DNA of 32,000 bases from Dissulfurirhabdus thermomarina (GCF_012979235.1 NZ_JAATWC010000004.1:137243-169242); one strand, 5' to 3'. Shown: positions 4,983 to 29,008, counted from the stretch's first letter. The notes: generated by a model from the letters alone, not told the origin. Made by a program: numbers and translations.

Positions 4983-5088
4983 GACGCGCCAACGTGCCCT
5001 TCGGTCTCCCCTTCTGGGATCGAGGGTCGGCCCCCGGCCCGCGCGGAAAGGGGCCTTCGGTGGTGGTACTCTTGGAATTCGGTTCTAG

Positions 5089-5300
5089 GATGGCGTCGCC
5101 AAAAGTCGCGGGCTGCGGCGCTCTTCGGATGTTCTCGTCATTGCGGCGGAGCTCGGTACGACTCATTCCTCGATATCCTCGCGCCGTGCATTTGGCGATT
5201 TTTGCCGAGCCATCCACTCGGAGGGCTTTTTACGGGGCCATCTTCTATAATCCTCTATGCCGCAAGCGTCCCGCTTGGTGATGCCCGCGGCGCCATCATC
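5089..5300. repeat. Mosaic intergenic repeat, locus 1: A-type unit (5089-5242, reverse orientation) plus hairpin end-module (about 5262-5300, forward)
   Basis: 5089-5242 is about 85% identical to the reverse complement of 6281-6437 and to 17458-17603. Termini are GATGGCGTCGCC ... GGGGCCATC. 5262-5300 (GCAAGCGtccCGCTTGGTGATGCCCGCGGCGCCATCATC) recurs at 14720-14765, 21088-21128 and 28809-28850. Confidence 0.85.
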
Positions 5301-5330
5301 GAAAAGGCCTCCCCCGGTGCGGGGGAGGCC
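5301..5330 (-). terminator. Rho-independent terminator of the OMP gene
   Basis: Perfect 10-bp stem GGCCTCCCCC / GGGGGAGGCC with a 5-nt loop (5306-5330). Read on the minus strand it is followed by TTTTC. Lies 48 nt downstream of the stop at 5378. Confidence 0.6.
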
Positions 5331-5377
5331 GAGGGAGGCGGGACTCCTGGCCGGCCCGCCAAAGGTCGACGCCATCT

Positions 5378-6256
5378 TCAGAAGGCGTACTGGATGGAGA
5401 GGACGTAGGCCCTCCCGAAGGCCGCCCGCTTCTGGAGCGGCGCGGTCTTCCGGTAGGTCCGGTCGCCCGTGTCCGCGTAGGAGGCCACCAGCGTGAGATT
5501 CGGGTTCGGCATGTAGGCCGCGTGGGCCTCCCAGATGGAGTGGGTCGTGTACCGGGTGGCATCCCCCTCGATGACCCTGCCCACGTCGGCGTCCTGCTGG
5601 TACTCCCAGCCCACGATGAACCCGCCGGGGAGCACGGTCTCGACGTTGCCGAAGAAGACCGTGTCCCGGTCGTCGCCGAAGCCCAGCACGCCCCGGACGT
5701 AACCCTTGGTCCAGAGGAGGCCGGCGTTCAGGATCACCGGGACGGGAAGGGCGCCGAACATCTTGGTGGCCACGACGTAGCCGTCGACGTCGGTGACGTC
5801 GCGGGCCGGCGCCGCGCTGAACTCGGTATGCTTCCAGATGGCGCCGGCGGAGACGGCGGGCAGGAGACCGATCCCGAACCCGCCCTCCTGCACGAGGTTG
5901 ACCTTCAGGGAGAGGTTGTCCTTGTCCACGTTCTCGATGCCCTCGATATCCACGAACTCGTGGCTGTAGCCCAGCTCCAGGCGGTTGAAGAAGGCGATGT
6001 TCGCCCCCACGGACCACCAGTCGATGTCCGACTCGGTGAGCCCAGCGGTCCAGACCCCGACCTGGGGCCGGGAGACCGCCCGGCTCCCGAGCAGCCCGCC
6101 CGCCTCCCCCTTGACGGGGTTGGCGACGTAGGCGAAGGGATTCAGGGCGCACCCGCCCACGCCCTCGAAGTTGGTGAGCGGGGCGCCGGCCAGGGCCGCC
6201 CCCTCCAGGCACCAGCAGAGCCCCAGGAACAGGGACAGGGACACGATCTTTCTCAT
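5378..6256 (-). CDS. Putative outer-membrane beta-barrel protein (DUF3034-like)
   Basis: Start chosen at the internal ATG (6256), preceded by GGAGGAAG. Signal peptide is MRKIVSLSLFLGLCWCLEGAALA. Sequence alternates amphipathic beta-strand-like segments and ends in an aromatic residue (...SIQYAF), typical of OMPs. Confidence 0.6.
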   Translation of the reverse strand: MRKIVSLSLFLGLCWCLEGAALAGAPLTNFEGVGGCALNPFAYVANPVKGEAGGLLGSRAVSRPQVGVWTAGLTESDIDWWSVGANIAFFNRLELGYSHEFVDIEGIENVDKDNLSLKVNLVQEGGFGIGLLPAVSAGAIWKHTEFSAAPARDVTDVDGYVVATKMFGALPVPVILNAGLLWTKGYVRGVLGFGDDRDTVFFGNVETVLPGGFIVGWEYQQDADVGRVIEGDATRYTTHSIWEAHAAYMPNPNLTLVASYADTGDRTYRKTAPLQKRAAFGRAYVLSIQYAF

Positions 6257-6280
6257 GGGCTTCCTCCTCTCCGATGGGTT

Positions 6281-6437
6281 GATGGCCTCGTAAAAAGTCC
6301 TCTGATGTGGACGGCTCAGCAAGAATCTCCAAATGCACGGCGCAAGGATGTTGTGGAATGAGGCGTAGTTGAGCTACGCCGAAATGACGGGAACATCCGG
6401 AGCAACACAGCAGCCCGCGACTTTTGGCGACGCCATC
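6281..6437 (+). repeat. Mosaic intergenic repeat, locus 2 (A-type unit, forward)
   Basis: GATGGCCTCGTAAAAAG...GCGACTTTTGGCGACGCCATC. Homologous along its full length to 5089-5242 (reverse complement) and 17458-17603. Contains the hairpin GGCGTAG-TTGAG-CTACGCC (6362-6380). Confidence 0.85.
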
Positions 6438-6487
6438 ATGGGTTGTCGATGGGCCTCCCCCGGGCAGGCGGGGCGGCCGCAGGCGCC

Positions 6488-7429
6488 TCAGCGCTCGTAG
6501 AAACCGAAACCGTTGACCGCCATGGGGACCGCGGTGTCGGAGGCGACCTCGAGCACCGATCCGTCATAGAGCCGCACCCGCCGGTAGCCCAAGAGGTCGC
6601 GCAGCACGAAGTAGCCGAGGGCGGCCCTGAGGCCGTGGTCGCTGTAGACCACGATCTCCGCGGAGCGATCCTCCGGGAGGCCGATCCCCCGGGCGATGGC
6701 CTGGAGTTCCTCCCTGGGCCGGAAGACGGATGGGCTGAAGGCCTGGCCGCCGAGGGTGAGATAGGCGGCCGGCATGGGGATGGCGCCCCTCAGGTGCCCG
6801 TAGCGGGCGACGTGGGCCTTCTTCTCGTGGCCGATGTAGGCGTCCATGTCCCGGAGGTCCACGAAGACCGCCGTGCCGGAACGCAGCCGCGCCTTGACCT
6901 CGTCCAGGCCGATGCGCCGGTCGGCCGCGACGGCGGGGACGAAGTCTCCCGGCTCCGGCACGGCGGGGCGCTTCGTGACCGGGAGTCCGGCCTGGCGCCA
7001 GGCCTCGAAACCGCCGTCCAGGAGGGCGGCCTTCCCGTGGCCCAGGGTCTCCAGTGTCCACAGGACCCGGGCGCTCCGCGCCGTATCCTCCGCGGTGACG
7101 CCCTGGTCGTAGATCACCACGAAGGCGTCGTTTCGCACCCCATAGGAGCGCAACCTCGCCGCCAGTTCCCCCACCGGCGGCATCATGAAGCCCCGGAACC
7201 GTTCATCCATGGTCTGCCAGGGGCCGAAGGCCTGCACCGCCCCCGGAATGTGGCCCTGCCCGTACCGGGAGAAGGTCCGCACGTCCAGGACGACCACCCC
7301 GCGGTCCTCCCGGTGCTTGGCGAGCCACTGAGCCGTGACCAGCGGATCGTGGGCCGGGGCGGGCCCGGCGCACGAAAGGAACACGGCGGCGCAGGCGGCC
7401 GCGATCAGGGCATGGATCGTCGTCTTCAT
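6488..7429 (-). CDS. Periplasmic tandem-rhodanese-domain protein (SseA/thiosulfate sulfurtransferase-like), with Ser at the catalytic Cys position
   Basis: 313 aa. Signal peptide MKTTIHALIAAACAAVFLSCAGPAPA. Two rhodanese repeats (VVLDVR...GHIPGA; FVDLRD...GHLRGA). The second-domain active-site loop reads VVYSDHGLRAA instead of CxxGxR. Start overlaps the upstream stop (ATGA). Confidence 0.8.
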   Translation of the reverse strand: MKTTIHALIAAACAAVFLSCAGPAPAHDPLVTAQWLAKHREDRGVVVLDVRTFSRYGQGHIPGAVQAFGPWQTMDERFRGFMMPPVGELAARLRSYGVRNDAFVVIYDQGVTAEDTARSARVLWTLETLGHGKAALLDGGFEAWRQAGLPVTKRPAVPEPGDFVPAVAADRRIGLDEVKARLRSGTAVFVDLRDMDAYIGHEKKAHVARYGHLRGAIPMPAAYLTLGGQAFSPSVFRPREELQAIARGIGLPEDRSAEIVVYSDHGLRAALGYFVLRDLLGYRRVRLYDGSVLEVASDTAVPMAVNGFGFYER

Positions 7430-8421
7430 CTCCGTCGCCTCCTGTCGTCATCCGGGCCGGCGGCCCGGCCGGAAGGCCGCCCCCACGAGAAGCGTTCCAG
7501 GGGAAGGTCCCCGCGCCGCCGGCAGTACTCCAGCATGGACCCGTCATAGACCCGCACGTTCTCGTAGCCGAGGACGTCGTGGAGCACGAGGTAGTCGATG
7601 CCCGCGAACTGGGCGGTGTTGCAGTAGACGATGATCCCGGCCCCCTTGTCCGCGGGGAGCCCCACGCCGCGGGCCAAGGCCTCGAGGACGGCCTCGTCCT
7701 TCAGGGTGGCTGGCGCCCGGTTGCGCCCGGCATTCGTGAGATAGGCCGCCGGCAGGCTCACCGACGAGGGGATGTGCCCGTAGCAGGCGACGTCGGCGCG
7801 CTTCGTGTGGCCGAAGTGCTGGTCCGGGTTCCGGGCGTCCACGAGGAAGGTGCGCGGATCGGCGATGGCGCGCCGCACGTCGTCGAGGCCGGCGATCGCG
7901 CGCGGGTCGCGCCGGGCGACGAAGTCCCCCCTGCGCGGCGCCGGCTCGTCCTTGACCACCTTCCGGCCCTCGAAGGTCCACTTCGTGAAGCCCCCGTTCA
8001 GCATGGAGACCCGTTCGAGCCCGTTGGCCTTGAGGATCCAGTAGACGGCCCCGGCCTTGGAGGCGTCGCTCACCGTGTTCCCGTGGGCATAGACCACCAC
8101 GTGGGAGTCGCGGTTCACCCCGGCCTCCTGGAGGAGGTCGGTGAGTTCGCCCTCGGGCACCATGAGGAGCTCGCCCTCGTCCCCCGGTGGCTCCATCTCC
8201 CCGTAGGGCACGCTCACCGCCCCCGGGATGTGGGCGAAGGCGTAGTTGGCCTCGGTCCGTACGTCCATCACCACGAGGCCCTTTCGGCCGAGGTGCCCGG
8301 CGAGCCAGGCCGTGTCCACGAGGGGCGGGGCCCCGCCCGCGGCCGCCCCGGGGGCCAGGCCCATGGCCAGGCACACCAGCCAGCCGATCACGCCGCTTCC
8401 GAATCCGGTCCTTTTCTTCAT
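7426..8421 (-). CDS. Periplasmic tandem-rhodanese-domain sulfurtransferase (catalytic Cys present)
   Basis: Start at ATG 8421, preceded by GAAGGAGG. Signal peptide MKKRTGFGSGVIGWLVCLAMGLAPGAAA. Two rhodanese repeats. The active-site loop is IIVYCNTAQFAG. Has an unusual Arg/Asp-rich 30-aa C-terminal tail. Confidence 0.8.
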   Translation of the reverse strand: MKKRTGFGSGVIGWLVCLAMGLAPGAAAGGAPPLVDTAWLAGHLGRKGLVVMDVRTEANYAFAHIPGAVSVPYGEMEPPGDEGELLMVPEGELTDLLQEAGVNRDSHVVVYAHGNTVSDASKAGAVYWILKANGLERVSMLNGGFTKWTFEGRKVVKDEPAPRRGDFVARRDPRAIAGLDDVRRAIADPRTFLVDARNPDQHFGHTKRADVACYGHIPSSVSLPAAYLTNAGRNRAPATLKDEAVLEALARGVGLPADKGAGIIVYCNTAQFAGIDYLVLHDVLGYENVRVYDGSMLEYCRRRGDLPLERFSWGRPSGRAAGPDDDRRRRR

Positions 8422-8477
8422 GTCCACTGCGCCGCCTCCTTCACCCGGTCCACCCGTTCGCCCGGTCCGCGCCGCCA

Positions 8478-9836
8478 TCATCTTCTGCCCTCGATCCGCG
8501 CCGGGACCGGGTCCACGACGATCCGGCGGTTGGCCGCAGGGTCCCCGGGACGGAGATCGTCCCCGGTCAGGAAGAGTTCCCGCTTCCCGTGGCAGGCGTT
8601 GCACGACCGGTTCTGCGGGGTCCGCCTCTGGATGCTGTGCACCGCCGCGGAGTTCCATGTGGGGAGGGCGTCGTAGTTGGCGACGAGATCCTCCGGTCCG
8701 GGTTTGCCGGTGAGGGTGGCCTGGAACCACCGCAGCGAGGCGAGGGAATCCTTCCGCATGGGAGTGTGCCGGACGAGGTTGTACCGGTACGGGTTGGCCG
8801 GGCTCCGATCGATGTTCCTGCCGATCTTGAAGGTGAAGAGCGGCTCGGACGGGAAGATGACCTCGACCTTGCCCTCCTCCTTGACGTCCAGGGACACGTG
8901 GCAGTCCTGGCAGTTGAAGTACCGGTTCGCGTGGCAGACCTGGCAGGCCAGCTCGTTTTCCCCGTGGGCGTTGTGCATGGCCACCTTGGATCTCCCGGGC
9001 CGGGCGTCCGGGTGGCAGTCCTCGCACCGGGGGGTCTCGGTGGCGTAATAACGCTTGGCGTCCCCGGGCCGCGTGTGGTGGAGCTGGGAGCCCCGGTGGC
9101 AGTCGTCGCACTCCATCTGGCCCTTCTCGTAGTGGACGTCCGCGGTGGTCCCCAGGAAGCCCACGTATTCGCCGGCGAACCTGGAGCCGTGGCAGCCGAA
9201 GCAGGTCTTTTCCATGGGGGGGCGCCTCTGGAAGCGATGCCGGTCGATGAGGCCGCCCTTGGACACCTTGGGCCAGGCCACGTGGCAGCTGCCGCAGCTG
9301 GCGTGACAGTTGGCGCAATCGAGGCTCCAGGCGGCCGGGAGGAGGGTCTCCTGCATCTCGTGGGGCCTCGTGATGGTGCCCACGATGTCGAGGATGCCCT
9401 TCAGGGTGTAGTGCATGGAGTCCTTGAAGGTGGCGGCGATCTCCTCGTGGCACTCGGCGCACACCCCGCCGCCGCCCGCCTCCGACGGGTCCTTCACCAG
9501 GCCCTCGTGGGCCGCCTCCTTGTCGCTCGCATTGGTCCCCTTGTGGCAGTAGCGGCAGCCGAGCTCCCCGTGGGGGGTCTCGAGAAAGTCCCTGGCCACC
9601 CCGTAGGTGTCCCTGCCCCTCAACTGGGGGGCGGATACGCCTCAGCCGGCCACCCCGGCGGCCGCGGCCGCCGCCTTGGCCCCGAACTCGTCCATGCGCT
9701 CCAGGTCGGCGTGACAGGCGATGCAGGCCCCGGAGTCGGCATCGCCGGCCTGGACCGCCCGGACTGGGGCCGGAAGCCCGGCGCCAAAGAGCATCACCGC
9801 CAAGGTCACGAGTGATTTCATCATGTTGCGTTCCAT
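8478..9836 (-). CDS. Periplasmic undecaheme c-type cytochrome, interrupted by one in-frame TGA (9642-9644): candidate selenocysteine codon, or else a disrupted gene
   Basis: ATG at 9836 follows AGGAGGTGA. Signal peptide MERNMMKSLVTLAVMLFGAGLPAPVRA. There are 11 CxxCH motifs (CIACH before the TGA, 10 after). Both ORF-track pieces (9642..9905 and 8478..9623) are in the same frame. The downstream piece has no ATG/GTG start, RBS or signal peptide of its own. Confidence 0.7.
9602..9639 (-). other. SECIS-like extended stem-loop immediately 3' of the in-frame UGA
   Basis: mRNA after UGA reads GGCGUAUCCGCCCCCCAGUUGAGGGGCAGGGACACCUACGG. Lower stem is CGUA/UACG. Upper stem is UCC-GCCCC / GGGGC-(A bulge)-GGG. 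The 8-nt apical loop CCAGUUGA sits about 18-25 nt from the U of UGA. Confidence 0.35.
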
Positions 9837-9872
9837 GGGCACGTCACCTCCTCTTGGCCGTCGGGCCGTTAA

Positions 9873-9887
9873 TACCACGTTGTGGTA
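9873..9887 (-). promoter_or_regulatory. Perfect inverted repeat TACCAC-N3-GTGGTA (candidate operator or 5'-UTR hairpin)
   Basis: TACCACGTTGTGGTA lies just downstream of the predicted -10 element of the cytochrome operon, about +7 to +21 from the predicted TSS. Confidence 0.45.
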
Positions 9888-9889
9888 CT

Positions 9890-10010
9890 CAACTGGGATT
9901 TTCATAAATGAACGCGGTTTTTATGTCAAGAATTTTTATTTATCTGGATTTACCGTTGTTTTATGAAAATATTTATACTTTTTTATCTTTTTATTGTTTT
10001 TTTATCGCTG
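9890..10010. promoter_or_regulatory. AT-rich (about 20-25% GC) island with phased T-tracts in the divergent intergenic region
   Basis: Seven T3-7AT tracts end at about 9924, 9939, 9964, 9976, 9986, 9994 and 10005. The last four have roughly helical spacing. The flanking genome is about 70% GC. Confidence 0.7.
9901..9929 (-). promoter_or_regulatory. Sigma70-type promoter of the cytochrome-rhodanese operon
   Basis: On the minus strand: TTGACA (9929-9924), a 17-nt spacer, then TATGAA (9906-9901). It sits at the edge of the AT-rich island and about 65 nt upstream of the ATG at 9836. Confidence 0.55.
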
Positions 10011-10263
10011 GATGCCGTGCCGCCCTCGCAAAAAGGCTCCGGGGGGATGGCCGGGCAGAGATCCCGGATGCCGGCGCGAGGACGTCGGGGAACGGGGCGG
10101 GCCGCGGGCCGCCGAACGGGCGAGGTCACCCGGATCATCCCGGGTTTCGGTGCATTCTCGCAGCGCCACCATGCGCCGGGACGGGAAGAGGGCTTCCGCG
10201 CCTCCCCGATTCTGGTATCCTGGATCCCCGGACCGGCGACGGCCCGATCGAGGCCCGGAGACA

Positions 10264-10656
10264 ATGGACGGCACTCACTTCATGAGGGCCCGGCGGCTCC
10301 TCGGAAAGACCCAGAAGCAGATGGCGGAGCTCCTCGGGATCTCCCTGAAGGCGGTCTGCAGCTACGAGCAGGGCTGGCGGCGGGTCCCTCCCCACGTGGA
10401 GCGGCAGGTCTACTTCCTCATCGCCTCCAGGCGGGGCCTCGCGGAGGGCATGACTCCCTGCTGGGAGGCCAAGGACTGCCCCGACGAACGGCGGCGCTGC
10501 TGCCCCGCCTGGGAGTTCAACGCGGGGCGGCTCTGCTGGTTCATCAGCGGAACGGTCTGCGAATGTAACGCCCACCGAAACTGGGACGAAAAGATGCGCA
10601 TCTGCAAGGAGTGCCACGTCCTGGGGCAGATCCTGGACATGTTCGCGGAGCCCTGA
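10264..10656 (+). CDS. XRE-family helix-turn-helix regulator with a C-terminal 9-cysteine (two Cys-Trp) domain
   Basis: 130 aa from ATG 10264 (GGAG 5 nt upstream). HTH segment is RARRLLGKTQKQMAELLGISLKAVCSYEQG. C-terminal segment is PCWEAKDCPDERRRCCPAWEFNAGRLCWFISGTVCECNAHRNWDEKMRICKECH. Confidence 0.75.
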   Translation: MDGTHFMRARRLLGKTQKQMAELLGISLKAVCSYEQGWRRVPPHVERQVYFLIASRRGLAEGMTPCWEAKDCPDERRRCCPAWEFNAGRLCWFISGTVCECNAHRNWDEKMRICKECHVLGQILDMFAEP

Positions 10657-10737
10657 GGCCGAAAGGGAGGGGCCGCCGAGGCGCCGGACCGACGCGGGGA
10701 GACGGGCGCCGCCCCGGCGAGGGAGGGGAGGCCGCCG

Positions 10738-11169
10738 TCAGAAGGTGGCCGGGTCCTCGGGCGGAAGCGCCGCCTCGTCGAAGGGCAGGACCCCGAGCCG
10801 ATCCAGTTCCCCCTCCACCGCGGCCAGCCACCCCTCTGGGTCGATACCCGGGGGGAGCCGTCCCTCCAGGGCCTGCTCGGTAAGGCGGGCCAGCCCCTCG
10901 AAGTCGAACCCCGGCGAGACGGCGCCGCGGGCGGCGAGGTGGCGGAAGAGGGCCGCGTCGTCCTCGAGGTCCAGCCCGGCGGAGGCCCCGTGCACCCGGG
11001 CATGCCACTGCATGGCGTGGATCAGGGTGTCGTAGAGGGTGGACACCCCGGCCGCGAGCTTGCCCTGCCGGATCCGGCGCCGCGCCCCGCGAAGGTGCAG
11101 GCGCGAGCGCTGGAGGAGGGCGGCCGCGGGGTCCATGTGCCGTTCGTCGAGGAGCCCGAAGTGCGGCAT
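10738..11169 (-). CDS. Hypothetical protein (helical, 143 aa)
   Basis: ORF starts 4 nt after the stop of the upstream CDF-like gene. Codon usage is consistent with coding. No motif was recognised with confidence. Confidence 0.5.
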   Translation of the reverse strand: MPHFGLLDERHMDPAAALLQRSRLHLRGARRRIRQGKLAAGVSTLYDTLIHAMQWHARVHGASAGLDLEDDAALFRHLAARGAVSPGFDFEGLARLTEQALEGRLPPGIDPEGWLAAVEGELDRLGVLPFDEAALPPEDPATF

Positions 11170-14399: not shown

Positions 14400-14449
14400 C
14401 AGGCTCGCCCTCCCGGAAGGCCGCCGGAGAAGACGACGGCCGAGTAAGC

Positions 14450-14765
14450 GCCGCCGAGGACACGGCACACGGATGCCGCGGAACCGGGCGGAGCTGGATA
14501 CGCCGCCATGACGAGGGCGTCCGGAGTGCCGCCGCAGCCCACGACTTTTGGCGACGTCATCAAGAGAGATGGCCGCTTAAAACGGCCAATCGGAAAAAAT
14601 CGCCACCTGCACAGCGCGAGGATGGATAGGCGAGAATCGCCGAGGACAAGGCGCGACCATCGCGAGGAACGAGGCCTTCCCGGAGACTCCGGGGAGGCCG
14701 AGGGGTTTGAAGCACCGCCGCCGAGCGCCCCGCTTGGCGATTGTCGCCACGCCATCGGCGCCATC
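14450..14765 (+). repeat. Mosaic intergenic repeat, locus 3: 5'-truncated A-type unit (to 14561) plus B-type unit (14568-14765)
   Basis: ...CCGCAGCCCACGACTTTTGGCGACGTCATC is followed by GATGGCCGCTTAAAACGGCC...GCGAGAATCGCCGAGGACAAGGCGCGACCATCGCGAGGAACGAGGCC...GCCGAGCGCCCCGCTTGGCGATTGTCGCCACGCCATCGGCGCCATC. Contains a 13-bp hairpin at 14673-14699. Fills nearly all of the nadK / peptidase spacer. Confidence 0.8.
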
Positions 14766-17457: not shown

Positions 17458-17773
17458 GATGGCCCCGTAAAAAGGCCTCTGGATGGATGGCCAAGCAAGA
17501 TGCAAAGCGCGAGGATATCGAGGAACAAAGAGCACTTAGGCACGCCGCAATGACGAGGACATCCGAAACAATGCCACAGTTGGTGACTTTTTGCGACGCC
17601 ATCAAGAAATCGCCGCCTCCCGTGAACAGAGTCCCGGCATCGGCACGGACGGCGAAGCGAGAACCGCCACGGACGAGACGCGGCCACCGCGAGGAACGAG
17701 GCGCACCGAACTCCGCCGCAACGACGCGAGCATCCGGGGCATCACGGCCGCCCAGGCGTTTTGCGACGCCATC
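17458..17773 (+). repeat. Mosaic intergenic repeat, locus 4: tandem A-type (17458-17603) plus variant unit (17604-17773)
   Basis: Both units end in TTTTGCGACGCCATC. The first starts GATGGCCCCGTAAAAAGGCC. The second shares the core GCGAGAACCGCCACGGACGAGACGCGGCCACCGCGAGGAACGAGGCG with loci 3, 6 and 7. Confidence 0.85.
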
Positions 17774-17840
17774 ACGAATTTATCTGGAATTTCCAATAGT
17801 CATATATGGAGAACCGAATGAATGCCCATTCATGCCGGGC

Positions 17841-17869: not shown

Positions 17870-17960
17870 CGAACCGTTTCCTTCGGGGAAAGCCGCCGAA
17901 ACACCGGTGTTTCCCGGTCACCGGGTCCTTCAAGGGTAACCTTCTTGCAGGGGGGATGCA

Positions 17961-19154
17961 ATGAGTACCATTTCAGACAAGGTCAAGGAAGTTTACGAGG
18001 GCTTCTTCAAGAAGACGTGGTCCCCCATGACCGGCGGCATCCTGCTGGCGGTCCTGGCCATCTACATGTTCGCCTGGCACCGCCCGTGGGGCATCGTGGG
18101 CGGCCTCCGGAACTGGGGCGACTGGGTCCTCTACTCCCTGGGCCTCCTCGACCTCGACGAGGCGCCGGCCCATCCTCTCTTCTACTCGTCGTCGGTCATG
18201 GACCTCGGGCTGCTCGCCGGGGCGTGGATCTCCGCCGTCATCGCCAAGGAGTTCGCCATCCGGATCCCGCCGATGTTGGAGATCTGGAAGGGCCTCGTGG
18301 CGGGTATCCTCATGGGCATCGGCTCGGCCCTGGCCTTCGGCTGTAACGTGGGCGGGTTCTACAGCGCCCTCCAGAACCTCGCCGCCAACGGCCTCACCAT
18401 GATGGTGGGCCTCATCATCGGGGTCATCATCGGGCTCAAGTACCTCTACTGGGAGATGGAGCACCTCACCCCCGGCCCGGCCGGCCCCACCTGGCTCGAC
18501 AAGAAGATCCCCGCCGTGGTCGGTTTCATCGCCTTGGCCGCCCTCATCTGGGCCGCCTACGCCTACGGCGGCTCCGACATGGAAGACGCCGACCTCATGC
18601 CCGGCTACCTCCTCATCGGCGCCGGCATCGGCTACGTCTTCCACCGCAGCCGCCTCTGCATGGTGAACGGCTTCCGCGAGCCCTTCATGACCGGCGAGGC
18701 CGCCATGGGCAAGGCCGTGGCCGTCAGCGTCATCATCGGCACCCTGGGCATCGCCATCATGAAGTACATGGACCTCCGGCCCGAGGGCATGTACGTGGTG
18801 CCCGCCTTCTGGTGGGGCTCCCTGGTGGGCGGCATCGTCTTCGGCGCCGCCATGGTGGTGGCCGGCGGCTGCGGCAGCGGCTCCCTCTGGCGGGTGGCCG
18901 AGGGCCAGGTGAAGCTCTGGGTGGTGGTGATCGCCTTCGCCCTCAGCAACTCCGCGGTCCGCTACTGGTTCGACCAAAACGACTGGCTCTACACCAACGA
19001 CGAGTACACCGTCGGCATGCTGGGCAAGGCCATCTACCTGCCGGACTACCTGGGCTACGGCGGCTCCATCCTGCTGGTCATCGCCGCCATGCTGGTCTGG
19101 TATATCGTGATCGACTGGAACGAGGACAGCAACAAGCTGGTCATCGAAATGTAG
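17961..19154 (+). CDS. yeeE: YeeE/YedE-family sulfur-compound (thiosulfate-type) transporter
   Basis: 397 aa polytopic membrane protein. Conserved Cys-containing half-helices (LAFGCNVGGF; VVAGGCGSGSLW) are characteristic of YeeE/YedE. Confidence 0.85.
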   Translation: MSTISDKVKEVYEGFFKKTWSPMTGGILLAVLAIYMFAWHRPWGIVGGLRNWGDWVLYSLGLLDLDEAPAHPLFYSSSVMDLGLLAGAWISAVIAKEFAIRIPPMLEIWKGLVAGILMGIGSALAFGCNVGGFYSALQNLAANGLTMMVGLIIGVIIGLKYLYWEMEHLTPGPAGPTWLDKKIPAVVGFIALAALIWAAYAYGGSDMEDADLMPGYLLIGAGIGYVFHRSRLCMVNGFREPFMTGEAAMGKAVAVSVIIGTLGIAIMKYMDLRPEGMYVVPAFWWGSLVGGIVFGAAMVVAGGCGSGSLWRVAEGQVKLWVVVIAFALSNSAVRYWFDQNDWLYTNDEYTVGMLGKAIYLPDYLGYGGSILLVIAAMLVWYIVIDWNEDSNKLVIEM

Positions 19155-19223
19155 GACGAGCGGAGGCAACCGGGCACATCCCCTGCCCAGAATTCGACAC
19201 ACAAGATCGAAAGAGGAGGAGAC

Positions 19224-19481
19224 ATGAGCGACTACAAGAAAGCACCCGACGGTCTCACGGTGGCGCGGACCCTCGACGCCAAGGGGCTCAGCTGCCCCAT
19301 GCCGCTCCTTCGGACCAAGAAGGAGATCGAGAAGATCAACTCCGGGGAGATCCTCGAGGTCCTCGGCACCGACCCGGGCTCCCGCAACGACATCCCCGGC
19401 TGGTGCGAGCGGGCCGGGCACGAGTACCTCGGGGAGAAGGAAGACAGCGGCTTCATCCGCTTCTACGTGAAGAAGAAGTAG
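19224..19481 (+). CDS. tusA: TusA/SirA-family sulfur carrier protein
   Basis: 85 aa. Has the canonical LDAKGLSCPMPLLRTKKEI (CPxP) motif and a strong RBS (AGAGGAGGAG). Confidence 0.9.
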   Translation: MSDYKKAPDGLTVARTLDAKGLSCPMPLLRTKKEIEKINSGEILEVLGTDPGSRNDIPGWCERAGHEYLGEKEDSGFIRFYVKKK

Positions 19482-19538
19482 TCACCATCCGCCGGCGGCC
19501 GAAACGCGGCCGGCACAACCAACGGGAGGACACATCGG

Positions 19539-19871
19539 ATGTCTGCCGATCCGAACAAGCTGGGAATCTTCGTCACCTCCCCGCAGCACATGGACCATCT
19601 CATCGGGATCGCCCATGCCGCCGTGCGGGCGGGGAAGAAGGTCATGGTCTTCCTGACCTTCAAGTCCGTCCACCTCACCAAGCACAAGGACTTCATCAAG
19701 CTGGCCAACCTCTGCGACGTCGGGGACCTCGCCATCTGCGCCGACAGCTACACCTGCGAGGGCTACGACCCGGAGGCCGACATCCCCAAGGGCCTGGTCC
19801 CCTCCCAGATGCGGACCCAGGCCTACCACGGGGCCGTTCTCGAGGAGTGCGGCAAGTACCTGGTGCTCTAG
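19539..19871 (+). CDS. DsrE/DsrF-like sulfur relay family protein
   Basis: 110 aa. N-terminus KLGIFVTSPQHMDH... has the fold pattern of DsrE-like proteins, with a conserved Cys region (AICADSYTCEGY). Position after tusA matches the YTD arrangement. Confidence 0.65.
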   Translation: MSADPNKLGIFVTSPQHMDHLIGIAHAAVRAGKKVMVFLTFKSVHLTKHKDFIKLANLCDVGDLAICADSYTCEGYDPEADIPKGLVPSQMRTQAYHGAVLEECGKYLVL

Positions 19872-19887
19872 AGGAGGAGCTATCATC

Positions 19888-20226
19888 ATGGCATCCAAGA
19901 AGATCTACATACTCCTGCCGAACCGCATGTACGCCGGCGACGGGGTCCGCTCCGCCCTCGGCCAGGCGGTGGAGAATCACTACGCCTACCCCGTCTTCAT
20001 GCACGGCGAGTACCCTCGCTTCAGCGAGTACGTCACCGAGAACATCGATTGGATCAAGGACATGGAGGGAGACGTCCTGAACGTGGGCGGCGAGCCCCCC
20101 GAGGGCGTCGAGCTCACGAGCCTCACCCTCGAGGAACTCGGCGAGCGGCTTCGCGAGGCGGACGTCATCATCCCCTACGGTCTCAAGAAGCAGACCAAGG
20201 CCCCGCCCCCGGCCTGCGCGGACTAA
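19888..20226 (+). CDS. Conserved hypothetical protein (fourth gene of a YTD-type cluster)
   Basis: 112 aa. Strong RBS (GAGGAGGAG) and tight spacing after the DsrE-like gene. No recognised motif. Confidence 0.6.
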   Translation: MASKKIYILLPNRMYAGDGVRSALGQAVENHYAYPVFMHGEYPRFSEYVTENIDWIKDMEGDVLNVGGEPPEGVELTSLTLEELGERLREADVIIPYGLKKQTKAPPPACAD

Positions 20227-20239
20227 GGAGGACCGTCCC

Positions 20240-20431
20240 ATGAGCGAAGAAAAACCCATGAAGATCCTGCACGTCTACCGTTCCGAGCCCTCCGACGACG
20301 TGAAGACCCTGGTGAACATCCTGAACCGGGACCGGGAGGCCAAGGAATTCAAGCTCTACCTGGGAAAGCCCAACTACGACATGCTGGTCCAGATGATCTT
20401 CGACGCCGATCAGACCGTCAGTTGGTGGTAA
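20240..20431 (+). CDS. Conserved hypothetical small protein (fifth gene of a YTD-type cluster)
   Basis: 63 aa. Strong RBS (TAAGGAGGA). Followed by a terminator. Confidence 0.6.
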   Translation: MSEEKPMKILHVYRSEPSDDVKTLVNILNRDREAKEFKLYLGKPNYDMLVQMIFDADQTVSWW

Positions 20432-20582: not shown

Positions 20583-21089
20583 GTGCACCCCGTCCTCCAG
20601 GCCATCCGCGAACGGCGAAGCGTCCGGCACTTCCGGCCCGATCCCGTGGACCCCGAGACGGTGCGCCAGATCCTCGAGGCCGGCGCCTGGGCCCCCTCCG
20701 GGCTGAACAACCAGCCGTGGCGCTTCGCGGTGGTGCGGGACGGGGCCACGCGGGAGGCCCTGGCGGCACTCACCCGCTACGCCCGGGTGATCCGGGAGGC
20801 GCCGGTCCTCTTGCCCGTCTTCGTGGACCGGTCGGTCATGTACCACGAGGTGAAGGACCACCAGGCCGTGGGCGCCTGCCTCCAGAACATGTTGCTGGCG
20901 GCCCATGCCCTGGGCCTGGGGGCGGTCTGGCTGGGCGAGATCCTGAAGAACGCCGACCGGGTCCGGGAGATCCTGGGCCTGGAGCCGAACCTCGAACTCA
21001 TGGCCGTGGTGGCCGTGGGACACCCGGCCCGGCGGGACCAGGCCTCCACCCGGCGGCCCCTGTCCGAGCTGGTGGTGAAGGAGATCTGA
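20583..21089 (+). CDS. Nitroreductase-family flavoprotein
   Basis: 168 aa. Contains RRSVRHFRPDPV, APSGLNNQPWRF and LGAVWLG motifs typical of the NADH/FMN nitroreductase family. GTG start. Confidence 0.8.
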   Translation: MHPVLQAIRERRSVRHFRPDPVDPETVRQILEAGAWAPSGLNNQPWRFAVVRDGATREALAALTRYARVIREAPVLLPVFVDRSVMYHEVKDHQAVGACLQNMLLAAHALGLGAVWLGEILKNADRVREILGLEPNLELMAVVAVGHPARRDQASTRRPLSELVVKEI

Positions 21090-21128
21090 TGACGGCGCCG
21101 CGGGAATCACCAAGCGGGGCGCTTGGTG
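21088..21128 (-). repeat. Stand-alone hairpin end-module of the mosaic repeat family (locus 5)
   Basis: GATGACGGCGCCGCGGGAATCACCAAGCGgggCGCTTGGTG is the reverse complement of the R2 module seen at 5262-5300, 14720-14765 and 28809-28850. It has a 9-bp stem and overlaps the nitroreductase stop codon. Confidence 0.7.
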
Positions 21129-21168
21129 GTTCCGGCCGAACCGTCCACTTCTGGAAGGAGTCCCTGTC

Positions 21169-23861: not shown

Positions 23862-24049
23862 GATGGCCTTAAAAAGCCCTTTGAGTAGATGGCTCGGCAG
23901 AAATCGCCAAATGCAAGGCGCGCGGATGGAGAGGCGGGAATCGTCGAGGGCAAGGTGCGACCATCGCGGGGAACGAGGCGTCACCGGGGACTGCGAGGGG
24001 CCGAGGGGCTTGAAGCACCACCGTCATTGGTGATTCTCGCGACGCCATC
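23862..24049 (+). repeat. Mosaic intergenic repeat, locus 6 (B-type unit, forward)
   Basis: GATGGCCTTAAAAAGCCC...AAATCGCCAAATGCAAGGCGCGCGGATGGAGAGGCGGGAATCGTCGAGGGCAAGGTGCGACCATCGCGGGGAACGAGGCG...TCTCGCGACGCCATC. Collinear with 14568-14765 and with the reverse complement of 28809-29008. Confidence 0.85.
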
Positions 24050-28808: not shown

Positions 28809-29008
28809 GATGGCGTCGCGGGCATCGCCAAGCGGAACGCTTGGCGGCGTTGTTTCCCATCGCATCGTCACTGCGGCGTACTTCGAGTACGCCTCGTTCC
28901 TCGCGATGGCCGCGCCTTGTGCTCGGCGATTCCCGCTGAGCCATCCGTGCCGTGCATCCGGCGATCTCTGCTCAACCATCCACTCAGAGGCCTTTTTACG
29001 AGGCCATC
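28809..29008 (-). repeat. Mosaic intergenic repeat, locus 7 (composite unit, reverse orientation)
   Basis: Its reverse complement reads GATGGCCTCGTAAAAAGGCCTCTGAGTGGATGG...GGAATCGCCGAGCACAAGGCGCGGCCATCGCGAGGAACGAGGCGTACTCGAAGTACGCC...CCAAGCGTTCCGCTTGGCGATGCCCGCGACGCCATC. Flanked by 21-nt imperfect direct repeats. Confidence 0.85.

Follow-up and report, generated by a model that had tools for sequence, protein, structure and literature searches.

The locus discussed here raises the question of what a multiheme cytochrome, whose gene is interrupted by an in-frame TGA, might do beside two rhodaneses. It lies in a window of 32,000 nucleotides (NZ_JAATWC010000004.1:137243-169242, assembly GCF_012979235.1; positions are counted from its first letter) from Dissulfurirhabdus thermomarina, a thermophile that disproportionates elemental sulfur and sulfite (PMC7463578). 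Three co-directional genes on the minus strand encode the cytochrome, rhodanese-2 and rhodanese-1 (Table 1). The reduction or disproportionation of elemental sulfur in the bacterial periplasm is a puzzle of decades' standing, and an initial annotation, made from the sequence of the window, had put these genes forward as a module for periplasmic sulfur redox and transfer chemistry. That annotation overlooked the in-frame TGA, and with it selenocysteine (Sec); it is borne out in part, and its reading of the locus has to be revised considerably. Comparative sequence analysis indicates that the cytochrome belongs to a second, non-homologous family of predicted Sec-containing multiheme cytochromes with rhodanese partners, and we regard this as the main finding.

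Translated through the TGA, the cytochrome consists of a signal peptide, heme 1 (CIACH), a 22-residue linker, Sec65 in the context G-V-A-G-U-G, and hemes 2-11, which confirms the eleven CxxCH motifs counted before. Its ATG start at 9836 stands 10 nt after GAGGAGG, with an alternative in-frame GTG at 9842, and Pfam recognizes only generic multiheme domains (Cytochrome_C7 and Cytochrom_c3_2). The cytochrome can be called undecaheme and periplasmic only on condition that codon 65, a UGA, is decoded, as the TGA breaks the reading frame, leaving the signal peptide and heme 1 upstream and ten CxxCH motifs downstream. The claim that each of the three proteins has its own signal peptide stands to the extent that all have a basic n-region and a hydrophobic h-region, judged by inspection, but that of the cytochrome lies upstream of the TGA. 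Mechanical calling of open reading frames (ORFs) splits the gene into ORFs of 87 and 381 aa, only the longer of these is in GenBank, as the 'hypothetical protein' WP_163297549, and of the 120 homologues listed from the database, some 100 start just past the TGA position. Owing to the UGA, the family has thus been mis-annotated as truncated 'hypothetical proteins'.

Is the TGA a true stop or a pseudogene lesion, leaving two genes, one for a 64-residue monoheme peptide and the other for a decaheme protein? The split annotation by gene callers and GenBank speaks for it, and the hairpin that follows the TGA in the window is by itself no more stable than shuffled sequence (z = 0.07, in a context of 70% G+C). 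On the other hand, the ten hemes of the downstream ORF could not be attached if it were expressed alone, because it has no signal peptide. The rest of the case against a stop is comparative, and draws on two samples of relatives: the 80 best loci from contigs representing one genome per species, and the 80 best metagenome loci. In 78 of the 80 genome loci, from four phyla, a TGA occupies the same alignment column in a G-G-U-G context, and the other two have Trp or Phe. The metagenome loci have TGA in 74 of 80 cases and Trp in 4, with 2 unresolved. The same column has Cys (GGGCG) in the full-length database homologues P0101, P0115 and P0088, and the coding sequence is conserved among orthologues on either side of the UGA, as is looked for in a selenoprotein.

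The RNA tells the same story. Aligned without gaps over the stretch between the UGA and position +42, 67 distinct sequences share a hairpin resembling a selenocysteine insertion sequence (SECIS), in which columns 13-19 after the UGA pair with columns 25-31 at a fixed spacing; the window copy lies 10 nt downstream of the TGA. Pairing is observed in 88.5% of cells versus 64% after shuffling, there are 101 double-change cells versus 35 shuffled, and when the partner columns are slid, pairing drops to 34-54% (about 45%). The pair 16-28 covaries, being GC in 36 sequences and CG in 31. In the apical loop, G21 is invariant and U22 and U23 are each at least 90% conserved, giving a G-U-U at +21 to +23. 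Given the z-score of the window hairpin, support for a SECIS comes only from this comparative analysis.

Within the window, Rfam at gathering thresholds has zero matches and ARAGORN zero tRNAs, so that no Sec-decoding genes are seen there; a tRNA-Sec has been reported for the D. thermomarina genome (PMC7463578). In eight spirochaete loci, the genes for tRNA-SeC, selA and selB are directly upstream of the cytochrome gene, and those for ResB and CcsA directly downstream. The full order in these loci (L013-L017, L035, L041 and L055; for example L014:112-4773) is (rhodanese)-tRNA-SeC-selA-selB-Sec-cytochrome-ResB-CcsA. Genes for Sec decoding, for the selenoprotein and for System II cytochrome c maturation (the pair ResB-CcsA) are clustered together in these spirochaetes, and decoding Sec for this cytochrome may be one of the main tasks of the machinery in their genomes. 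The TGA with its flanking residues and covarying hairpin kept across phyla, the Cys homologues, the adjacent Sec genes in some loci and the tRNA-Sec reported for the host together make a true stop or a pseudogene lesion at codon 65 very unlikely, and we give that explanation next to no credit. Sec65 is likely to be the catalytic residue.

How far does this family extend, and has it been seen before? Relatives are present in at least 559 species-level genomes and at least 571 metagenome contigs, and about 95% of the 160 best loci examined carry the UGA. An exhaustive HMMER search gives 94 clusters (50% identity) at E ≤ 1e-30 and 237 at E ≤ 1e-10. The window cytochrome and relatives from three further phyla score well below the cutoff of every NCBIfam model. 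The best family matches (GSU2203, DmsE and ExtM/ExtN) score 24-48 bits versus cutoffs of 192-800, and the models for OTR (TIGR04315), MccA, TsdA, Sox and Psr/Phs/Ttr are not matched by the cytochrome. A profile built from 56 family sequences has its best PDB matches, by local heme-motif likeness, with 28pb, OTR (1sp3), GSU1996 and OcwA, with E-values of 1.6e-6 for 1sp3, 2.5e-5 for 6i5b and 8.5e-5 for 5ze8, in matches that span 60-140 residues around the heme motifs. OTR and the NrfA/OcwA-type proteins are thus the best, though weak, PDB profile matches, and Sec-containing OTR variants appear in a 2026 selenoproteome review; besides the unmatched TIGR04315, these enzymes differ from the family in heme number and in the C-terminal β-rich domain. 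Foldseek gave no significant PDB match for the AlphaFold2 model of the Cys-type homologue P0101. The NCBIfam and PDB sequence searches found no orthology to a characterised non-sulfur enzyme, which the initial annotation had held would count against its proposal. Prokaryotic selenoproteome reviews (2022 and May 2026) name as cytochromes ExtKL, GSU2204 and OTR-type proteins only, and a literature search with rhodanese, undecaheme, selenoprotein and multiheme terms surfaced MccSep alone, not this cytochrome family. Within the limits of the sources searched, this is apparently an unannotated selenoprotein family.

MccSep does mean that the view of the initial annotation that nothing comparable is known is outdated. 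The first Sec-multiheme polysulfide reductase to be described (Sci Adv, August 2026) is the pentaheme protein MccSep/ExtKL of Geobacter sulfurreducens (GSU2937-2936), in which a Sec beside a heme reduces polysulfide and is essential for respiration of elemental sulfur; it is clustered with the rhodanese ExtH and the porin ExtI (PMC13510729). With these partners it is a published analogue of the present system, and not a homologue: its chains 9wt8 and 9wt9, present in the PDB sequence set, are matched neither by the window cytochrome (E ≤ 1) nor by the 56-sequence profile (E ≤ 10), and the model NF040886 for MccSep/ExtKL has no match at E ≤ 0.01. Both proteins are predicted or known periplasmic multiheme c-type cytochromes with an in-frame UGA for Sec, a SECIS hairpin after it and a gene split by annotators (PMC13510729; PMC5877670). 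Both are encoded beside a rhodanese-family protein (the rhodanese-like lipoprotein ExtH, for MccSep) and an outer-membrane β-barrel, and both are found in sulfur-reducing and sulfur-disproportionating Desulfobacterota and Nitrospirota. The differences are in the proteins themselves. The cytochrome here has 11 hemes (10-13 CxxCH motifs across 80 relatives, eleven of them conserved) versus 5 CxxCH in MccSep. Its Sec65 sits in G-G-U-G, 22 residues after heme 1, whereas that of MccSep is in a C-terminal immunoglobulin-like domain, in the context D-G-U-P. A conserved heme-ligating Cys is lacking here, as no Cys is conserved across the 80 relatives except in the heme motifs and at the Sec position. 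The partners are different as well, the rhodaneses not being ExtH equivalogs and the barrel being a DUF3034 protein instead of ExtI. By analogy, the system may work like MccSep/ExtKL with ExtH and ExtI, yet with a different protein family.

Besides the eleven conserved hemes, the family has ten invariant His outside the motifs (H89, H110, H142, H200, H235, H253, H288, H291, H357 and H400), and M208 and M241 are also conserved. Chloroflexota members (for example P0046, P0047 and P0051) have an insertion after heme 7 that adds one or two CxxCH, giving 12-13 hemes in 36 of the 80 sequences. In 74 of 74 loci, the heme 1 His and the Sec are 20-25 residues apart, joined by a linker of varying composition, and before residue 80 no further His, Met or Cys is conserved.

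The association with rhodanese is the other part of the finding. The initial annotation was to be dropped if the three genes proved not to be conserved as a unit, but they are so conserved. A near clade of relatives (L001-L004, 67-73% identity) keeps all five genes, for the regulator, the cytochrome, rhodanese-2, rhodanese-1 and DUF3034; the cytochrome with two tandem rhodaneses is found in these Desulfobacterota-like metagenome-assembled genomes (MAGs) and in L089, and L089 and Ca. Sulfobium (Nitrospirota, L090) keep cytochrome-rhodanese-rhodanese without DUF3034. A rhodanese gene of some type also adjoins the cytochrome gene in Chloroflexota, Bacillota, Spirochaetota and Acidobacteriota, so that the family is found beside rhodanese genes in at least six bacterial phyla. 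The rhodanese is not always the same one: in Chloroflexota, the gene next to that of the cytochrome, at a median distance of 71 nt, encodes a different rhodanese, a protein of 574 aa made of four single domains each with CASGHRG. Non-orthologous rhodanese types, tandem TST-like here and four-repeat in Chloroflexota, have thus been recruited to the same cytochrome. Proteins that fuse the cytochrome to a rhodanese exist, for example P0043. JGI calls many cytochrome-only members (P0016, P0046, P0049, P0056 and others) 'thiosulfate/3-mercaptopyruvate sulfurtransferase', a name probably transferred from such fusions, which makes it an annotation artefact that nevertheless mirrors the linkage.

If adjacency is taken as same strand and within 700 nt, a rhodanese adjoins 116 of 132 Sec/Cys-type loci versus 1 of 9 Trp/Phe-type loci (Fisher p = 1.9e-6, kinship being ignored), and the rhodanese is therefore tied specifically to the chalcogen residue. 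In the two Cys-type loci, the nearby genes likewise include one for a rhodanese, next to that for a Mo-oxidoreductase or a cytochrome b. One Cys-type cluster, in an Acidobacteriota MAG (L081:3402-12978), comprises genes for a multiheme cytochrome, an NrfA-like cytochrome c552, the Cys-cytochrome, a rhodanese, a 919-aa molybdopterin oxidoreductase, a 4Fe-4S subunit and a TorD-like chaperone. The Trp/Phe subclade (L068, L074, L083-L085 and L091-L093, Chloroflexota-type) has 'xWA' in place of 'GUG'. L164 is the exception, with Trp in a Sec-type sequence context and the rhodanese still present, and looks like a recent TGA-to-TGG change. A metagenome scan seeded with the Trp type gave mostly Sec-type loci. 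Genetic coupling between a rhodanese and the predicted Sec-multiheme cytochrome is, we conclude, shown by these comparisons.

Could the cytochrome nevertheless be an electron-transfer protein, extracellular or otherwise, without sulfur catalysis, the rhodaneses serving some other purpose or the supply of cofactor or selenium? Genes for NrfD, an NrfC-like 4Fe-4S protein, a multiheme cytochrome and cytochrome b flank many family loci, and the Trp/Phe-type relatives keep NrfC, NrfD and the multiheme cytochrome while the rhodanese is absent. The scaffold can work as a plain wire, because these relatives exist without Sec and rhodanese, and the ten invariant distal His and two conserved Met could render all hemes six-coordinate. 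Sec is costly, yet it is kept in nearly all the loci examined, and it co-occurs specifically with the rhodanese and is even fused to it in some proteins. An electron wire seems to us quite improbable.

What do the two rhodaneses look like? Both are tandem proteins with two Pfam Rhodanese domains each, as annotated, and they are paralogues, with nucleotide repeats of 70-76% identity 980 nt apart (D6, D9). Their role as carriers of Cys persulfides holds for only one of them. Rhodanese-2 has the catalytic Cys in the active-site loop of its C-terminal domain (IIVYCNTAQFAG; IIVYCNTAQ, YCNTAQFAG), kept in all orthologues examined, and its closest solved structures are the tandem TST/MST rhodaneses 8k55, 1uar and 1urh. 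Rhodanese-1 has a Ser for the active-site Cys (VVYSDHGLRA; YSDHGLRAA), as do all orthologues examined (L001, L003 and L004), and the mature protein is free of Cys. The scores are 92 and 83 bits with NCBIfam SseA (NF008557, cutoff 250) and 70 and 51 bits with ExtH (NF040901, cutoff 200), so neither protein is an equivalog of either. Rhodanese-1 was also considered as an ExtH-like lipoprotein; this was ruled out, as no lipobox is conserved in its orthologues.

On balance, we lean towards a periplasmic reductase that depends on Sec and acts on sulfane or polysulfide sulfur supplied by rhodanese, with the analogy to MccSep as our guide. It would be the product of a four-gene periplasmic operon in which the genes for the Sec-cytochrome, rhodanese-2, rhodanese-1 and the DUF3034 barrel follow a promoter-like site and end at a terminator, with the UGA at codon 65 decoded as Sec, aided by the SECIS hairpin just downstream. 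Polysulfide or other sulfane sulfur would reach the periplasm, in this clade possibly via the DUF3034 barrel, and be taken up by rhodanese-2 as a Cys persulfide, while the Cys-less rhodanese-1 may be a non-catalytic partner or binding subunit. The selenolate of Sec65, 20-25 residues past heme 1, would then attack the persulfide or polysulfide sulfur to form an Se-S adduct, which electrons from the eleven-heme chain would reduce with release of sulfide. Modules that oxidise quinol (either NrfC and NrfD with a multiheme cytochrome, or cytochrome b) lie next to the gene in other phyla and are the plausible electron source there. A sulfur disproportionator would use the system in the periplasm as its reductive branch, which forms sulfide.

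A comparable division of labour is found in Wolinella succinogenes, where Sud, a periplasmic rhodanese-like polysulfide-sulfur transferase, feeds the molybdenum polysulfide reductase Psr. In both cases, a periplasmic rhodanese-type carrier would pass sulfane sulfur, as a persulfide, to a reductase, which in Sud-Psr is membrane-linked. Here, the acceptor would be a Sec-multiheme cytochrome instead of a molybdopterin enzyme, and the rhodaneses have tandem or four domains.

Several points weigh against such a reductase. Its substrate and direction are taken only from gene neighbours and from an analogous but unrelated enzyme, and the chemistry of MccSep is not directly transferable because the family lacks the heme-ligating Cys of MccSep. 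The kinship ignored in the Fisher value must be counted here as well. The Sec loop has a pLDDT (predicted local distance difference test) below 50 in the AlphaFold2 model of P0101, and within the window no quinol-oxidising module adjoins the operon. The role of DUF3034 is clade-specific at best, as the gene is solitary in other sulfur disproportionators. And many of the hosts, among them Anaerolineae and Sphaerochaeta, are known as fermenters and not as sulfur respirers.

Thiosulfate is the donor in classical rhodanese chemistry, and both rhodaneses are of the tandem thiosulfate/3-mercaptopyruvate sulfurtransferase class. The system could then be a rhodanese-dependent thiosulfate reductase, in which rhodanese-2 would take the sulfane sulfur of thiosulfate and free sulfite, and the Sec-cytochrome would reduce the persulfide to sulfide; a Cys-type locus beside a molybdopterin oxidoreductase of the Psr/Phs/Ttr kind agrees with this. 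The sequences do not separate thiosulfate from polysulfide as the donor. What makes thiosulfate an unlikely substrate is that D. thermomarina is reported not to disproportionate it (PMC7463578), and that MccSep, the only characterised Sec-multiheme cytochrome, is inactive on it (PMC13510729).

The direction of electron flow has to be weighed too. A disproportionating host needs both branches, multiheme chains are reversible wires, and enzymes with a His/Cys heme, TsdA and SoxAX, oxidise sulfur (cited in PMC13510729). Sulfide, polysulfide or rhodanese-bound sulfur could thus be oxidised at the Sec, with electrons passing through the hemes to the quinone pool or an extracellular acceptor. TsdA and SoxAX resemble the system proposed here in doing sulfur chemistry on a chalcogen side chain that adjoins or is bound to a c-type heme; they differ in having two hemes and Cys instead of Sec, homology to them was not detected, and His/Sec ligation here is only conjectural. 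The characterised Sec-heme analogue is a reductase (PMC13510729), most hosts are strictly anaerobic fermenters with no obvious high-potential acceptor, and neighbours of the NrfCD type usually send quinol electrons outward. We find an oxidative role rather unlikely.

Then there is selenium itself. In the reduction or handling of selenite, tellurite or another chalcogen oxyanion, the rhodanese would carry selenium, as proposed for the Geobacter ext cluster. ExtH, the second-best NCBIfam match of both rhodaneses, belongs to a 'selenite/tellurite reduction operon', family members match ExtM and ExtN weakly, MccSep also reduces selenite (PMC13510729), and selA, selB and selC are adjacent in the spirochaetes. 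Yet the Ext matches are far under their cutoffs of 200-800 bits, MccSep prefers polysulfide sevenfold (PMC13510729), the adjacency of Sec genes is accounted for by the cytochrome being itself a selenoprotein, and selenium oxyanions are scarce in most source habitats. A chalcogen-oxyanion function is unlikely.

Returning to the rhodanese-fed reductase, could Sec65 be bound to the heme iron? A more specific and, to us, doubtful version of the proposal has Sec65 as the distal axial ligand of heme 1 (a His/Sec heme c), taking sulfane sulfur directly from the rhodanese-2 persulfide, with the system as the periplasmic arm, long looked for, that forms sulfide when elemental sulfur is disproportionated and when Anaerolineae, Sphaerochaeta and Clostridia of soda lakes reduce sulfur. 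Such a ligation is allowed because there are ten invariant non-motif His for eleven conserved hemes, and because the stretch before residue 80 offers no other conserved ligand while the spacing from heme 1 to the Sec is fixed. If true, a His/Sec-ligated heme c would be a new kind of catalytic heme centre.

As a periplasmic enzyme of a new kind that would reduce sulfur in a sulfur disproportionator, the family is in our view a strong candidate. If this is so, it provides a testable candidate for the sulfide-forming step in Dissulfurirhabdus and Ca. Sulfobium, and it would account for the cryptic reduction of sulfur by Anaerolineae, Sphaerochaeta and other abundant fermenters. The prokaryotic selenoproteome would gain a family, and selenium would have been recruited convergently to heme-based sulfur chemistry.

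The features of the locus are collected in Table 1. The gap of 56 nt between the cytochrome and rhodanese-2 genes (8477..8422) and the ATGA overlap between the two rhodanese genes (7429..7426) are read directly from the sequence, as annotated. The single promoter that had been described as strong is present as a sequence, with TTGACA at 9929-9924, a 17-nt spacer and TATGAA at 9906-9901; calling it strong is an overstatement. A scan with the sigma-70 consensus called no promoter in 5000-10700, missing this site because TATGAA does not have the conserved final T.

Table 1. Features of the cytochrome-rhodanese locus, in coordinates of the window
Feature	Position	Strand	Basis or description
Sec-undecaheme cytochrome gene (predicted)	8478..9836	-	452 codons; ORF calling and translation
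Rhodanese-2 gene	7426..8421	-	Pfam PF00581 x2
Rhodanese-1 gene	6488..7429	-	Pfam PF00581 x2
DUF3034 gene	5378..6256	-	Pfam PF11231
Intrinsic-terminator-like hairpin	5306..5330	-	11 bp stem, 10 G-C pairs, then TTTT
Promoter-like TTGACA-17-TATGAA	9901..9929	-	read from sequence; AT-rich intergenic island
Helix-turn-helix (HTH) and two-CW-domain regulator	10264..10656	+	NCBIfam NF045718, Pfam HTH_3; divergently transcribed
Dispersed intergenic repeat copy	6307..6438		repeat families D1, D2, I6
In-frame TGA, codon 65 of cytochrome	9642..9644	-	same alignment column across relatives
SECIS-like hairpin	9614..9632	-	fold and comparative alignment

The operon most likely has a fourth gene, DUF3034, before the terminator-like hairpin. 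This hairpin, 3' of DUF3034, is the sole strong one of its kind and is likely the end of the transcription unit. The gap of 231 nt between the rhodanese-1 and DUF3034 genes is explained by the dispersed repeat copy that fills it.

The DUF3034 protein matches PF11231 with 66 bits versus a cutoff of 25 (E 4e-18) and ends in ...QYAF. Its AlphaFold2 model (pLDDT 86) is an all-β barrel, which Foldseek matches to FapF, NanC, Omp33 and OmpF at E ~1e-7, that is, to the 12-stranded channels FapF and NanC and to porins. It is thus predicted to be an outer-membrane β-barrel and is a candidate channel; it has no match to the NCBIfam model for ExtI. The gene stands next to those for the cytochrome and the rhodaneses in L001-L004. 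A general partnership is ruled out, as DUF3034 occurs alone in Thermosulfuriphilus and Desulfurivibrio, and L089 and L090 lack it.

The initial annotation had also linked the operon to a YTD-type cluster 8 kb away (17940-20431, plus strand), which has genes for YeeE/YedE, TusA-like and DsrE-like proteins and small ORFs. Conservation does not bear out the link: YeeE or TusA is not found within ±6 kb in the 80 genome loci, nor within ±10 kb in L089 and L090. Genes for a CDF transporter, an NAD kinase and an M16 peptidase lie between the operon and this cluster.

The HTH and two-CW-domain protein (47 bits with the two_CW_domain model, cutoff 35) is a candidate regulator of the operon, which it also adjoins in L001-L004, with 55-69% identity. 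In two of these, a second two-CW-domain ORF occurs a few kb downstream (L001:12123-12287 and L002:10265-10429). In the window, the regulator and the CDF transporter gene are separated by a 143-aa ORF of coding-like composition (10738-11169, minus strand), which has a match in neither Pfam nor NCBIfam. The dispersed intergenic repeats are REP- or MITE-like, of about 60-200 nt, in either orientation and with 63-94% identity, and copies are found at 5089-5300, 6307-6438, 10072-10132, 14434-14756, 17458-17775, 21088-21129, 23867-24011 and 28809-29008.

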